DNA of 64,000 bases from a virus, in the IMG/VR virus record IMGVR_UViG_3300042897_000994, positions 1 through 64,000 of that record; one strand, written 5' to 3'. The notes beneath the pieces are model-generated. The model was not told the DNA's origin. It made no database searches and was given only the letters and a program-made list of their open reading frames with translations. This document shows, piece by piece, positions 2 through 46,893 of this stretch (positions are counted from its first letter, which is position 1; every line of letters begins with the position of its first letter). The translations under genes and the position numbers were made by a program.

Positions 2-2799
2 ACTTCAGGTTCGAGCGGTTCTTCGGGAACTAGCGGCAGTTCAGGTTCAAGCGGTACCAGTGGTTCATCAGGTACTTCAGGCTCAAGTGGTTCTTCTGGA
101 ACGAGTGGTTCATCAGGTTCAAGTGGTACCTCAGGAAGTTCAGGTATATCAGGTGTAGATGGTACTGATGGAAGTTCTGGTTCTAGTGGTTCGAGCGGAA
201 CATCTGGTTCAAGTGGTTCTTCAGGAACATCTGGTTCGTCTGGAACAAGTGGTTCATCGGGAACTTCAGGTTCTTCAGGATCATCTGGAACGAGTGGTTC
301 TTCAGGTTCATCAGGAACCTCAGGCTCGTCTGGTACTTCGGGAAGTTCTGGGACATCTGGCTCATCTGGAACGAGTGGTTCTAGTGGAAGCTCGGGGACT
401 TCAGGTTCATCAGGTTCTTCAGGAACTGGAGGAACATCAGGTTCATCGGGTACTAGTGGTTCATCAGGTACTTCAGGAAGTTCTGGAACATCTGGATCGA
501 GTGGCTCGAGTGGAACAAGCGGAAGTTCAGGTTCATCAGGAACTAGTGGAAGTTCAGGATCGAGTGGAAGTTCAGGAACGAGTGGAACTAGTGGAGTTAG
601 TGGAGCATCTGGTACTAGCGGAACATCAGGTTCAAGTGGTACAAGTGGAAGCTCAGGCGCAACAGGAGCACAAGGCGTTCAGGGAGCACAGGGAGCACAA
701 GGCGTTCAAGGTGCACAAGGAAACCAAGGAGCACAGGGAGCACAAGGAAACCAAGGAGCACAGGGAGCACAGGGCGTTCAAGGAGCAACTGGAAACCAAG
801 GCGCACAAGGAGCACAAGGAGCTGCAGGATCAAGTGGATCTTCAGGAACTTCAGGTGCAACAGGAGCACAAGGCGTTCAAGGTGCACAAGGAAACCAAGG
901 AGCACAGGGTGCACAAGGAAACCAAGGAGCACAGGGAGCACAAGGAAACCAAGGAGCACAGGGAGCACAGGGTGTTCAAGGAGCAACTGGAAACCAAGGC
1001 GCACAAGGAGCACAAGGAGCTGCAGGATCAAGTGGATCAAGCGGAACGAGTGGTTCATCTGGTTCTTCAGGTTCATCAGGAACTTCGGGTTCATCTGGAA
1101 CAAGTGGTTCAAGTGGAACGAGTGGTTCAAGTGGTTCTTCTGGAACTAGTGGTTCTTCCGGTATATCGGGTGTAGATGGTACCGACGGAAGCTCTGGATC
1201 GAGTGGAAGTTCAGGAACTTCAGGAGCACAAGGTGCACAAGGTGCACAAGGTGTTCAAGGGGCACAAGGAAACCAAGGAGCGCAGGGAGCGCAAGGAAAC
1301 CAAGGAGCACAAGGAGCACAGGGTGTTCAAGGAGCAACGGGAAACCAAGGAGCACAGGGAGCACAAGGAGCTGCTGGATCAAGTGGTTCAAGCGGAACTT
1401 CAGGTGCAACAGGAAACCAGGGAGCACAAGGAGCACAAGGAGCACAAGGTGTTCAAGGAGCACAAGGAGCACAAGGTGTTCAAGGAGCACAAGGAGCACA
1501 AGGTGTTCAAGGAGCAACAGGAAACCAAGGAGCACAAGGAGCGCAAGGAAACCAAGGAGCACAAGGAGCACAGGGTGTTCAAGGAGCAACAGGAAACCAA
1601 GGAGCACAGGGAGCACAAGGAGCTGCTGGATCAAGTGGTTCAAGCGGAACTTCAGGTGCAACAGGAAACCAGGGAGCACAAGGAGCACAAGGTGTTCAAG
1701 GAGCACAAGGAGCACAAGGTGTTCAAGGAGCACAAGGAGCACAAGGTGTTCAAGGAGCAACAGGAAACCAAGGAGCACAAGGAGCACAAGGAGCTGCTGG
1801 ATCTTCGGGGTCGAGCGGAACTAGTGGTAGTTCCGGAACTAGTGGTAGTTCTGGGGTAAGTGGTATTGCTGGAACTAATGGTACATCTGGTTCTTCAGGA
1901 TCGAGCGGAACTTCAGGTGCAACAGGAAACCAAGGAGCACAAGGAGCACAGGGTGTTCAAGGAGCAACAGGAAACCAAGGGGCACAAGGAGCACAAGGAG
2001 CACAGGGTGTTCAAGGAGCAACAGGAAACCAAGGGGCACAAGGAGCACAAGGAGCGCAGGGTGTTCAAGGAGCAACAGGAAACCAAGGAGCACAAGGAGC
2101 TGCTGGATCTTCAGGATCGAGTGGAACTTCAGGTGCAACAGGAGCACAAGGTGTTCAAGGAGCAACAGGAAACCAAGGAGCACAAGGAGCACAGGGTGTT
2201 CAAGGAGCAACAGGAAACCAAGGAGCACAAGGAGCACAAGGAGCACAGGGTGTTCAAGGAGCAACAGGAAACCAAGGAGCACAAGGAGCACAAGGAGCAC
2301 AGGGTGTTCAAGGAGCAACAGGAAACCAAGGAGCACAAGGAGCTGCTGGATCTTCAGGATCGAGTGGAACTTCAGGTGCAACAGGAAACCAAGGAGCACA
2401 AGGAGCACAAGGTGTTCAAGGAGCAACAGGAAACCAAGGGGCACAAGGAGCACAGGGTGTTCAAGGAGCAACAGGAAACCAAGGAGCACAAGGTGCACAA
2501 GGTGTTCAAGGAGCAACAGGAAACCAAGGAGCACAAGGAGCACAGGGTGTTCAAGGAGCAACAGGAAACCAAGGAGCACAAGGTGCCGGAGGAGCTGCTG
2601 GATCTTCAGGATCGAGTGGAACTTCAGGTGCAACAGGAAACCAAGGAGCACAAGGAAACCAAGGAGCACAAGGAGCACAAGGAAATGCAGGAGCGCAAGG
2701 AGCACAAGGAAATGCAGGAGCACAGGGAGCACAAGGAAATGCAGGAGCACAGGGGGCACAAGGAAATGCAGGAGCACAAGGGGCACAAGGTGCAGCGGT
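2..2799 (+). repeat. 9-bp-unit tandem repeat (GSS/GTS and GAQ/GNQ/GVQ/GAT triplets) with higher-order units of about 243-252 bp
   Basis: ggagcacaa, ggaaaccaa and ggtgttcaa units. The gctgctggatc... block recurs at 1370, 1622, 2099, 2342 and 2594. Confidence 0.95.
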
Positions 2800-3277
2800 A
2801 TCAGTGTCTGGAACCAACAATACAGTAGTTAAATTTACAGGCGCAAGTACAGTAGGAAATAGCCAGATCACGGACGATGGTACTACCGTTACTATGACGG
2901 GAAGACTCGGAGTTGGTTCCGGTGTTAGTGTACCAGCAACCAATGGGGTAATTGTTGCAACAAATGATGTAATAGCTTTTGCTTCCTCCGACTCTAGGTT
3001 AAAAGATAATAAAACTATTCTGACTAACCCTCTAGATAAAGTTTCTAAACTGAATGGGTACGAGTTCGATTGGATCCCGATGCTTGGAATTCACGAAAAT
3101 GAAGGACACGATATTGGTTTAATAGCACAAGAGGTTGAAAAAGTACTGCCAGAAATTGTTAAAACTCGTGATAATGGATATAAAGCTATTAGATACGAGA
3201 AGATCGTTCCTCTACTAATTGAAGCTATTAAAGAGCTAAGCGCGGAGATAGATAAATTAAAAAGTAAAAAATCATAA
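2..3277 (+). CDS. Long tail fibre, 5'-truncated: about 930 residues of G-X-Y repeats plus a C-terminal intramolecular chaperone (peptidase S74-like) domain
   Basis: Frame 2 reads [12 protein letters not shown] from base 2 and joins the track ORF 2804..3277 in frame. The C-terminus SDSRLKDN...LNGYEFDW...[16 protein letters not shown]...[20 protein letters not shown] is the typical S74 chaperone. Confidence 0.88.
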
Positions 3278-6222: not shown

Positions 6223-6237
6223 GATATATAAAAAAAA
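6223..6237 (+). promoter_or_regulatory. Putative late promoter GATATATA plus A-run
   Basis: GATATATAAAAAAAA just upstream of the baseplate operon. The motif recurs many times in the window. Confidence 0.65.
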
Positions 6238-44836: not shown

Positions 44837-44851
44837 GATATATAAAAAAAA
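44837..44851 (+). promoter_or_regulatory. Putative late promoter GATATATA plus A-run
   Basis: Upstream of the 44864/45713 gene pair. Confidence 0.65.
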
Positions 44852-44863
44852 TTATTTTTAAGG

Positions 44864-45697
44864 ATGCAACCAATACAGAAATTTTCTGATTACTTCAAAG
44901 GTTATCAGACTACACAAGAAGCTATTCGCGAAGCAGATCTTCAAAAAGAATACGGTGAAGTTTTCATGTCTCTTTTGAAAAAATATGGAGTTAGTAGTCC
45001 AGCAGAGCTAGACGAAGAAAAGAAGAAAGAATTTTTCGATGAAATCGGAGGTCTTTATAAAAAGGGAGAAGGTCAAACTGCTAAGGGCGAAGAATTAGTA
45101 GACACTGAAAAACCTGAGCCCGTTAAAGAAGAGGAAAATGAAGAAGAGGAAGAAGAAGACGAAGAAGGTGTGAAGATTCCTAAAAAGAAAGACGAAGAAA
45201 CAGCTGCAGAAATAGAAGCAGAAATCGATGATATGGGTGAACCTAAAGATTCTGAAGATAAAGGAGATGAAGTTCCTAAAGACTCAGAAGAAGTCGAGGT
45301 AGAAGTTGAAGAAGAACCTGCAGCACCAGAAGCTGGAACTGAGGTTGATAAAGAAGAAGATAAAGAAACTGACAAAGATATTGAAGCTGAGATTGATGCA
45401 ATGGGTGAACCTAAAGATTCTGAAGATAAAGGAGATGAAGTTCCCGCCGATGCTGAAGAAGTTGAAGTAGAAGTTGAAGAAGAACCTGCAGCACCAGAAG
45501 CTGGAACTGAGGTTGATAAAGAAGAAGATAAAGACACAGCAAAAGAAATCGAAGCTGATAAAGTTGAAATGGGTAAACCAAAGAAAGCTGTTATGAGTTT
45601 TGATGAATTTGTTTCTTCTAAGAATGAGTCTACTACCAAAGGAGAAGAATCCGAATTAGAGGATGAAGATTTGGATGATGTAGACGATCTTGGGTAA
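44864..45697 (+). CDS. Very acidic putative prohead core / internal protein
   Basis: LKKYGVSSPAELDEEKKKEFF motif, Glu/Asp-rich, capsid-targeting-like motifs at both ends. Confidence 0.55.
   Translation: MQPIQKFSDYFKGYQTTQEAIREADLQKEYGEVFMSLLKKYGVSSPAELDEEKKKEFFDEIGGLYKKGEGQTAKGEELVDTEKPEPVKEEENEEEEEEDEEGVKIPKKKDEETAAEIEAEIDDMGEPKDSEDKGDEVPKDSEEVEVEVEEEPAAPEAGTEVDKEEDKETDKDIEAEIDAMGEPKDSEDKGDEVPADAEEVEVEVEEEPAAPEAGTEVDKEEDKDTAKEIEADKVEMGKPKKAVMSFDEFVSSKNESTTKGEESELEDEDLDDVDDLG
45212..45583 (+). repeat. 168-bp (56-aa) intragenic tandem repeat, a little over two copies
   Basis: atgggtgaacc or atgggtaaacc at 45233, 45401 and 45569. Confidence 0.9.
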
Positions 45698-45712
45698 TCA
45701 CAAAAAAATGAA

Positions 45713-46843
45713 ATGAAGCACATTAAACTATTTGAAGAATTCTCGGCCACATTCGAGGCTCAAACCAAGCTAACACCTGAGCAAGAGAAGTTCTTAAATA
45801 GGTCAGTAGGAGGAACTTGGTCTTTGAATCCTCAGACAGGACTTGTTGATGTAGATGGCTATGTCAACTGTTCTAATGAGGGTCTACAAGATCTTAAAGG
45901 CGTCAGATTCGGGAACGTAAGTGGGAGTTTCTCGTGCAGCTATAATAAGCTCACAAGTCTGGCAGGAGCACCACAGACCGTTGGTAAGGATTTCCATTGT
46001 GATATGAATAAGCTCACCTCACTGGTGGGAGCACCACAGGCTGTTGGGGGGATAAATGCCTTTACTGTATCAGGCACTACGGGGAGTTTCTGGTGTATGA
46101 ACAATCAGCTCACCTCACTGGTGGGAGCACCGCAGGCTGTTGGCGGGGATTTCCGTTGTCATAACAATGTGCTCACCTCTCTAGAGGGAGCACCTCAGAC
46201 CGTTAAATGGGGTTTCCTTTGTAGTAACAATCAGCTCACCTCTCTAGTGGGAGCACCAAAGACCGTTGGTAAGGAATTCGATTGTAGTAACAATCAGCTC
46301 ACCTCACTGGTGGGAGCACCTCAGAAGGTTGGTGACGAATTCGATTGTAGAAATAATCCTCAACTTACCTCATTAGAAGGAGCGCCGAAAGCAAAGAGAA
46401 TTGCTAGTGATATTAATAAAACCACGGTGGCTCCGCGGTCTTTTTCTATTGCCAGCGAATTCGAGGATTATGAAAATGGCAAAACTTATGATCTACAGGG
46501 TGAATGGGAAGATTTTAATTTTTCTGTTAAAGGAGACACCGTAATCTTTTCTGGTAAAGCTTATATAGGTGATGTAAAAGGAAGTTATAGTGATAAAAGG
46601 GGTTTAGAAATGACCATGATGGTTGATATATTCACATTTGCAGATTGGTTTAAAGATAATCCTGTAAAGATCATATATAGAGTCAACAAAATCAAACCTG
46701 AAGATGTAATTGGTGATATTCATAACACCCTTGCCGCAATTAATGACTCTGGGACTGATTGGGAATCAGTAAAAGATGTTAGTAAATTTCTTAGAGATAA
46801 TGGATTAAAAACTACATCTAAAATATTAGAGCCTGAAGATTAA
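45713..46843 (+). CDS. Leucine-rich-repeat protein with a capsid-targeting-like N-terminus
   Basis: Starts MKHIKLFEEF. Seven LTSLxGAP units with linking VxxxFxCxxNx segments. Unrelated C-terminal domain. Confidence 0.85.
   Translation: MKHIKLFEEFSATFEAQTKLTPEQEKFLNRSVGGTWSLNPQTGLVDVDGYVNCSNEGLQDLKGVRFGNVSGSFSCSYNKLTSLAGAPQTVGKDFHCDMNKLTSLVGAPQAVGGINAFTVSGTTGSFWCMNNQLTSLVGAPQAVGGDFRCHNNVLTSLEGAPQTVKWGFLCSNNQLTSLVGAPKTVGKEFDCSNNQLTSLVGAPQKVGDEFDCRNNPQLTSLEGAPKAKRIASDINKTTVAPRSFSIASEFEDYENGKTYDLQGEWEDFNFSVKGDTVIFSGKAYIGDVKGSYSDKRGLEMTMMVDIFTFADWFKDNPVKIIYRVNKIKPEDVIGDIHNTLAAINDSGTDWESVKDVSKFLRDNGLKTTSKILEPED
45950..46390 (+). repeat. 63-bp (21-aa) LRR repeat array
   Basis: ctcacctcactggtgggagcacc-like cores at 45950, 46013, 46109, 46172, 46235, 46298 and 46364. 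Confidence 0.9.
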
Positions 46844-46861: not shown

Positions 46862-46893
46862 AAAAAAGAGGTCACCTATGGCCTCTTTTTTTT
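46862..46893 (+). terminator. Intrinsic terminator
   Basis: AAAAAAGAGGTCA-CCTA-TGGCCTCTTTTTTTT. Confidence 0.85.

Follow-up and report, generated by a model that had tools for sequence, protein, structure and literature searches.

In bacteriophage T4, internal proteins are injected into the host together with the phage DNA in order to disarm host defences, and they represent the textbook case of this strategy. To our knowledge, few types of cargo are known for injected proteins of the T4 type. The T4 capsid-targeting sequence (CTS) reads MKTYQEFIAE, in which residues 4 and 7 are required for targeting, and residues 8 (I/L) and 10 (E) for cleavage by gp21. In the type III effectors IpaH3, SspH1/SspH2 and YopM, a leucine-rich repeat (LRR) constitutes the target-recognition part of the delivered protein. 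The gene characterized here (positions 45713..46843, plus strand; 376 amino acids (aa) plus stop, from the list of open reading frames (ORFs)) joins a CTS-like leader to this classic target-recognition fold, and its family comprises thousands of uncharacterised members. It is located in a viral DNA stretch of 64,000 nucleotides, referred to below as the window, which corresponds to positions 1-64,000 of the 160,937-bp IMG/VR record IMGVR_UViG_3300042897_000994. An earlier note on this DNA, made from the sequence alone, had described the product as a tagged LRR protein with constant DNA scaffolds and variable binding-face residues. We favour, with somewhat more confidence than doubt, the reading that the gene encodes a modular protein consisting of a leader, an LRR part and a C-terminal domain, in which the LRR part is a mobile, recombining block, and that this protein is probably packaged and delivered to bind a host protein.

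The anatomy of the array, as described in the earlier note, was confirmed in every element. The 63-bp units with near-identical cores were recovered by Tandem Repeats Finder, which reported a period of 63 bp with 4.1 copies and 79% matches at 46100-46358. A degenerate 23-nt core was matched exactly at five positions (46013, 46109, 46172, 46235 and 46298), where 0 matches are expected from shuffles, and two further, diverged copies were found at 45950 and 46364. In the translation, seven LTSLxGAP anchors (aa 80, 101, 133, 154, 175, 196 and 218) mark seven units at 45950..46426 (plus strand), namely six full 21-aa units and one degenerate capping unit. The residues L1, L4, F15, C17 and N20 are invariant across the units of the window array, with Cys at unit position 17 in six of the six full units, while the strand residues differ in each unit, being the very residues that had been listed before. 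The unit said to carry an 11-aa insert is unit 2, which comprises 32 aa instead of 21, with the insert at aa 114-124 (46052..46084, plus strand). This insert, kept in a 99%-identical strain and missing from the ortholog of a relative with ~80% average nucleotide identity (ANI), is probably a loop, given its predicted local distance difference test (pLDDT) score of <50 at aa 114-119 in the AlphaFold2 (AF2) model.

The array is also more GC-rich than the 3' part of the gene and the neighbouring genes. Indeed, the GC content at third codon positions (GC3) amounts to 0.41-0.45 in the LRR part (0.41 for aa 19-245), compared with 0.22 in the C-terminal domain and 0.20-0.34 in the neighbouring genes. 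Since the excess persists at third codon positions, it cannot be a mere effect of amino-acid composition. Across the genome, GC3 has a mean of 0.24 (sd 0.07) over coding segments of 510 nt, and the LRR array represents the highest genuine coding GC3 segment of the 161-kb record, exceeded only by off-frame ORFs in 2-3277.

Structure prediction by AF2 with 44 relatives yielded a solenoid at aa 20-235 with pLDDT >90 and short strands at unit positions 14-16. In this model the LRR domain is a solenoid with one short strand per unit, and the variable residues are located in and beside these predicted strands. The family profile matched internalin J of Listeria monocytogenes (InlJ, PDB 3bz5) with an E-value of 1.9e-29 over 228 positions as well as SspH1, and a single-sequence search also reached SspH2. 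Foldseek returned IpaH3, SspH1 and YopM in its top rows; the best rows were all LRR proteins with a probability of 1.0 and E-values of ~1e-3, and a hagfish variable lymphocyte receptor (VLR) was among the fold matches. The Pfam model LRR_4 (PF12799) scored 21.6 bits, which is under its gathering cut-off of 27, because the unit is too divergent for this model; many relatives carry a precomputed match to it. In a compilation of 817 family units, L1, L4, G6, P8, F15, C17 and N20 are fixed (Cys17 in 99%), and positions 14, 16, 18 and 19 are hypervariable, each with an entropy of >3 bits. By these profile and structural matches, the protein is a member of the LRR superfamily, of the short bacterial cysteine-ladder (InlJ-like) type.

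The family itself is large. A search of 5.8 billion proteins retrieved >4,765 relatives, all of them metagenomic and nearly all unnamed proteins. The best 120 relatives include 37 short proteins whose leader and N-cap are similar to those seen here, 66 proteins in which a 280-aa N-terminal domain takes their place, and a few fusions to a PcfJ domain. PHROGs matched the LRR part only. Megablast of 12 kb against 50,697 phage records revealed no close DNA relative, and at the protein level matches in these records were restricted to two Vibrio phages, three huge-phage records and Listeria contigs. In a literature search, no description was found of this phage LRR family or of an LRR protein with a CTS tag. 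The only relatives found in cultured phages are those of two Vibrio alginolyticus phages. One of them, Vibrio phage VB_VaC_TDDLMA, encodes an LRR protein of 211 aa (L052:3974-4609) that begins with MCTFEEWFGE, where an aromatic, a second aromatic, a hydrophobic residue and Glu fall at CTS positions 4, 7, 8 and 10. This V. alginolyticus phage protein may offer a tractable system for testing packaging.

Variation of the array between strains, which the earlier note had anticipated, was observed at two distances, as an 8-unit mosaic allele at 99% identity and as an array of five anchors at ~80% ANI. The 7-unit allele of the window is itself confirmed, since the identical protein occurs on 4 contigs, including a 2.4-kb contig from another sample that is 100% identical. 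The 90% protein cluster also includes a member of 397 aa, encoded on a contig (L019, ERZ19397236) that shares 98.5-99.4% DNA identity with the window over 11 kb, yet contains 8 units. In this allele the first 456 nt of the gene are identical to the window, the C-terminal domain differs by one codon, and the remaining differences are confined to aa 153-178 and to one additional 63-bp unit. The extra unit is a mosaic whose first 41 nt correspond to unit 1 and whose last 22 nt correspond to unit 5, and the codons ACA AGT CTG GCA, found in unit 1 alone, recur in it. Moreover, most of the nearby point differences copy states that are already present in sister units. Taken as a sequence pattern, the mosaic unit and the copied states are what unequal exchange and gene conversion inside the array typically leave behind. 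One face-adjacent Lys-to-Ala change in L019 needs two substitutions and occurs in no other unit, which argues against the 8-unit allele being an assembly chimera.

The relative of ~80% ANI is represented by two overlapping contigs of one assembly (L023/L021), on which UvsW shows 92-93% protein identity to that of the window. Its array has five anchors, and the face residues differ from those of the window except in the last full unit. The codon for Leu-1 is CTT in every unit of this ortholog and CTC in every unit of the window, and this uniformity implies concerted evolution inside each array.

The expected contrast between a constant scaffold and a variable face, with substitution rates analysed by repeat position, was borne out. 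In the six full units of the window, the scaffold codons show a synonymous rate (dS) of 0.31 and a nonsynonymous rate (dN) of 0.05, whereas the face codons show a dN of 1.37, a dS of 0.50 and a proportion of nonsynonymous differences (pN) of 0.63, and are nearly randomised. Between the window and the ~80%-ANI ortholog, the dN/dS ratio (omega) of the LRR gene is 0.25-0.72 at a dS of 0.34-0.56, with 0.5 for the array, while the flanking genes for UvsW and the HhH-GPD protein have omega values of 0.03 (at dS 1.8) and 0.09 (at dS 1.1), respectively. The dS of the LRR gene between these phages is thus two to five times lower than that of UvsW and HhH-GPD, which suggests either a later exchange of the gene between lineages or codon constraint.

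The fast change of the face positions is suggestive of diversifying selection, although it is not a proof. The same variation might be explained by neutral repeat instability, where units slip and convert, the x positions of the LRR are unconstrained and no diversification is selected. Such an explanation would account for the observation that all changes of the 99% strain are of the kind made by unequal exchange or gene conversion, that the same positions are variable family-wide, as in every LRR protein, that omega of the array between orthologs is 0.5 and not >1, and that an identical allele is found on 4 contigs. It accommodates less easily that the face dN exceeds both the face dS and the scaffold dS, that omega of the LRR gene lies far above the 0.03-0.09 of its neighbours, and that the face-adjacent Lys-to-Ala change between 99% strains takes two nucleotide changes. 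We therefore consider a purely neutral origin of the variation doubtful.

A more specific source of variation would be a programmed diversification, either by VLR-like copy-choice from silent cassettes or by a diversity-generating retroelement. The conserved 23-nt cores could act as short-homology joints, and a mosaic unit does exist between strains. However, apart from the gene itself, neither an LRR gene nor a core nor an LTSLxGAP peptide in any frame occurs in the 161-kb record; no other core was detected at up to 5 mismatches, and a six-frame search for LTSLxGAP, a search for a second protein match and a search for repeats of the array outside the LRR gene all remained without result. The reverse transcriptase family PF00078 was likewise absent from the record, with positive controls. 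Both donors of the mosaic unit sit inside the same array, and the identical allele recurs on 4 contigs. A programmed mechanism is accordingly highly improbable. The VLR-like cassette system was rejected because donor cassettes are missing from the 161-kb record and exchange is seen only within the array, and the diversity-generating retroelement because the record has neither a reverse transcriptase nor a template repeat. The analogy to lamprey VLRs that had been drawn for this gene, with swapping of cassettes, finds no counterpart in another LRR gene, silent cassette or reverse transcriptase of the 161-kb record, and other LTSLxGAP cassettes, for which the note advised to search the genome, were not encountered there beyond the gene itself. 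Of the recombination-diversified binder, what stands is recombination within the array, probable insertion of a whole module and fast change of the face, while the cassette system does not.

The LRR block behaves as a module, composed of N-cap, array, cap unit and linker (aa 19-245; 45767..46447, plus strand). It is absent en bloc from a scaffold of 593 bp (L053, ERZ28594243), which aligns to the window on either side of 45768-46447 and lacks exactly that stretch. The scaffold encodes a 149-aa protein (P0124), in which the 18 residues of the leader are joined straight to the C-terminal domain without an LRR. Because P0124 connects the leader directly to the C-terminal domain, and because the foreign GC3 agrees with it, the LRR block can be regarded as a mobile module. 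In other phages, GC3 of the array follows that of the genome, amounting to 0.04-0.15 where the phage has 26% GC and to 0.58 on a contig of 50% GC. The family as such thus does not account for the excess observed in the window and in its ~80% ortholog, which is in keeping with acquisition from a source of higher GC. Six other viral contigs, with 35-49% GC, contain the exact 23-nt core. No donor of the module was identified among the fetched loci, of which the best reached a nucleotide identity of 70-73%. Most likely, the LRR block was inserted into a small gene encoding leader plus domain, coming from a GC-richer phage.

The C-terminal domain (aa 246-376; 46448..46840, plus strand), predicted to be of the alpha/beta type, is rare. 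HMMER yielded 6 matches among 1.84 billion representatives, and a profile search with the domain gave no matches beyond these six. One of the matches (P0126; L054:1051-2064) has a similar leader, after which come, in this order, a copy of the domain with 38% identity and DUF285 repeats, and it is located two genes from a DUF3008 gene, in an arrangement much as in the window. A third match has a different N-terminal part. Two different repeat binders, LRR and DUF285, thus occur on one rare C-terminal domain. AF2 modelled the domain with a pLDDT of 71.8 when it was submitted alone and of ~30-40 in the full-length run. Pfam has no family for the domain, its model had no match in BFVD at E <=0.001, and the best VIA-align hit had a Z of 6.2, under the usual noise of 7-8. 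Among the queries for a function of the domain, phmmer gave a weak match to 4w9r (E 6.6e-4).

The LRR gene is the second gene of a two-gene unit (44864-46843), which opens with a late-type promoter-like motif, ATATATAAAAAAAA (44838..44851, plus strand), 12 nt before the first gene, and closes at an intrinsic-terminator-like hairpin followed by a T run (46862..46891, plus strand; 13-pair stem, loop of 4, T tail). The first gene, co-oriented and taken from the ORF list (44864..45697, plus strand), encodes a very acidic protein of 277 aa and ends 15 nt before the LRR gene; neither a promoter nor a terminator was found between the two. The motif ATATATAAW has 30 copies on the plus strand of the record and 2 on the minus strand, mostly 10-25 nt before start codons, and it precedes the largest structural genes, the protease ORF and other leader-bearing genes. 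It often occurs as GATATATAAAAAAA, for example at window positions 6224, 28208, 44838, 48533 and 63499. For the late promoter of T4, TATAAATA, the window shows no enrichment, with 7 copies vs 8 expected, and sigma-70-like sites are at chance level. From its likeness to the T4 motif TATAAATA, ATATATAAW is probably the late promoter of this phage, and a late expression of the LRR operon may be inferred from this motif, which it has in common with the structural genes.

The N-terminal leader (aa 1-18, MKHIKLFEEF...; 45713..45766, plus strand) is kept in P0124 and in the ~80%-ANI ortholog, where 16 of the first 17 residues are identical. AF2 predicts a helix at residues 2-17 with a pLDDT of ~60-70. 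Phe7 and Phe10 have the same 3-residue spacing as the targeting aromatics of the CTS, but they are shifted by three residues from the N-terminus, and the match between leader and CTS is a likeness of pattern, not a homology returned by a search. The exact 10-mer MKHIKLFEEF begins 53 ORFs in 49 stretches of IMG/VR viral contigs (L066-L114). In almost all of these ORFs the sequence that follows is unrelated, and most continue with [IVL]-x-E. The usual form of the leader, aromatic-x-x-aromatic-[IVL]-x-E, thereby comprises all four functionally mapped residues of the CTS. MKHIKLFEEF looks like a portable leader, widely used by uncultured T4-type phages.

The genome of the window contains at least 6 other ORFs with a related leader, of which at least 5 read aromatic-x-acidic-aromatic-[IL]-x-Glu ([FY]x[ED][FY][IL]xE); the leader of the acidic upstream gene (44864) has the aromatic pair only. 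Leader-bearing positions in this genome are 39423, 48557, 107581, 110047 and 116213. A gp21-type prohead protease is encoded at record positions 69725-70069 (PF03420, Peptidase_S77, 57.1 bits), and, of 10 large records with the leader or the LRR family, 9 contain Peptidase_S77, a count whose weight as an argument for packaging depends on how common T4-type proteases are in large aquatic phage contigs. The Peptidase_S77 match spans only ~115 residues of an ORF of 606 aa (record 69662-71482, L051), and the homologous protease ORFs of nine other large records have 606-747 aa, so that phages of this group seem to have a prohead protease with a long additional region fused to it. Judged by these sequence features, packaging of the LRR protein by its leader is plausible.

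An alternative would be an exposed virion protein or secreted adhesin, in which the LRR serves as an InlJ-like accessory for binding to a receptor or surface. Indeed, among solved structures the closest relative is a surface adhesin, InlJ, and the gene carries a promoter motif that is common to tail and baseplate genes. Nevertheless, the first 18 residues are charged and include neither a hydrophobic signal peptide nor a membrane segment, the gene is located among replication and repair genes and not in the tail block, the ladder of free cysteines suits a reducing compartment, and the leader resembles a tag of internal proteins, not a fibre-attachment domain. This makes an adhesin quite improbable.

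Several observations weigh against the reading that we favour. The LRR protein has Ser11 and Thr13 where the I/L (8) and E (10) of the CTS sit, and its leader offers only off-register LFE or TFE sites. In the AF2 model the leader helix abuts the N-cap, so that within the LRR family it could belong to the fold. With respect to the module, the indel may have run in either direction, since a deletion from a full-length ancestor would equally yield P0124, and P0124 is known from one scaffold of 593 bp. One short-read metagenome assembly is the source of the 8-unit allele. Gene conversion may depress dS in the cores, and a face dN above the scaffold dS is for this reason no clean proof of positive selection. 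Finally, the record is about half complete according to CheckV, and cassettes beyond its 161 kb are possible.

Some of these points would also be expected if the protein were an intracellular LRR binder that is never packaged and acts only late in the producing cell. In that case the N-terminal motif might act in translation initiation or at the mRNA level, form the opening helix of the N-cap, or tag the protein for sorting or turnover. The missing canonical processing residues and the position of the leader helix directly before the cap helix are in line with this possibility. In addition, many of the proteins bearing the 10-mer look by eye like enzymes, with 2H-phosphoesterase-like and nucleotidyltransferase-like N-termini, and large amounts of such enzymes in a capsid would not be obviously useful. 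On the other hand, the leader is unchanged where the whole LRR module is absent and heads dozens of unrelated proteins, and for these reasons it does not belong to the LRR fold. In its usual form, it matches all four mapped CTS residues, and it co-occurs with gp21-type proteases and with the promoter motif of structural genes. We consider a protein that never enters the capsid somewhat unlikely.

According to the reading of a packaged, modular binder, the gene would encode a soluble protein with an 18-aa leader of the MKHIKLFEEF type, an LRR solenoid and a rare alpha/beta domain of 130 aa. The solenoid would be an InlJ/IpaH-like cysteine-ladder consisting of an N-cap and seven 21-aa units, and it might serve as a protein-binding module whose specificity is carried by the concave-face unit positions 12-14, 16 and 18. 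The mobile module of aa 19-245 would most likely derive from a GC-richer phage and have entered an older, small gene at the junction of leader and C-terminal domain. The array would then have been reshaped through homologous recombination of an ordinary kind, in which its near-identical 23-nt cores serve as the sites of exchange. Such recombination could yield both gain or loss of units and gene-conversion patches, and hence mosaic units, while the face residues appear to change faster than synonymous sites. Transcription would proceed, together with the acidic upstream gene, from the same promoter-like motif as that of the structural genes. The T4 CTS-like leader would probably carry the protein into the prohead, and, once delivered with the DNA, the LRR would bind a host protein.

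The phage can be placed among the T4-like myoviruses on the basis of the genes found, namely a UvsW-like helicase, the Peptidase_S77 prohead protease and, on a syntenic contig, a family B polymerase and a ribonucleotide reductase. The overall GC content is 34%, and nearly all genes are located on one strand. The LRR gene is set among genes of replication and repair (UvsW-like helicase, HhH-GPD, polymerase, ribonucleotide reductase), outside the tail block. The acidic upstream gene holds an internal repeat of 168 bp with 2.2 copies (Tandem Repeats Finder). Its protein (44864-45697) has a leader-like N-terminus and ends with LDDVDDLG, which resembles the DLDDVGF tails on many short members of the LRR family. 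At the start of the window, long alternative-frame ORFs with GC3 of up to 0.85 lie at 159-2828, within the 5'-open gene 2-3277, and these off-frame ORFs point to a strongly periodic repeat gene of odd composition.

New in this work are the 8-unit mosaic allele, the relative with five anchors, the relative without LRR, and the absence of donor cassettes and reverse transcriptase from the record. The three natural alleles, with 7 units, with 8 units including a mosaic, and without the LRR module, illustrate the assembly and remodelling of such a binder. If the protein is packaged, phages would deliver evolvable binders, and the combination of leader and late promoter would provide a sequence rule by which injected proteins could be recognised in phages that have not been cultured. 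Without packaging, the protein would be an ordinary, fast-evolving member of a large LRR family. A still wider proposal, which we put forward as a speculation and consider rather unlikely, is that T4-like phages of natural waters load hypervariable LRR binders into the capsid by means of a CTS-type leader and inject them with the DNA, using a swappable module and a retuned array. In that event the constant part would be the C-terminal domain, as effector or anchor, and the LRR block attached to it could be swapped as a targeting module; the array would be retuned by recombination within itself as host targets change.

Compared with known systems, the array resembles the VLRs of lamprey and hagfish in that both are LRR binders with a constant scaffold and a variable concave face, and in that mosaic units are joined in short homology. 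The phage, however, has neither an incomplete germline gene nor a bank of donor cassettes, and its changes are inherited between strains instead of being assembled somatically. With InlJ it has in common the 21-residue units and a conserved Cys that replaces one hydrophobic residue of the core. The Listeria protein is a bacterial adhesin that is secreted, anchored to the cell wall and equipped with a signal peptide and further domains, whereas the phage protein lacks a signal peptide and possesses a GAP turn motif, a leader and an unrelated C-terminal domain.

The likeness to the T4 internal proteins IPI, IPII, IPIII and Alt consists in a short leader at the N-terminus, whose two aromatics are spaced by three residues and which is found on otherwise unrelated, fast-evolving proteins of a T4-type phage with a gp21-type protease. 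The leader of the LRR protein differs in being three residues longer at its start and in having no I/L at position 8 and no E at position 10, and the cargo is here an LRR protein without similarity to any T4 internal protein. With IpaH3, SspH1/SspH2 and YopM, the phage protein shares short units of the bacterial type and the NQLTSL motif. These effectors are delivered by the type III secretion system, compared with a possible capsid route for the phage protein, which in turn has no NEL ligase and displays a Cys ladder that the effectors do not have. By analogy, its role may resemble that of the injected type III effectors, and, if the wider proposal is true, it would be to phages what the LRR effectors are to type III secretion.

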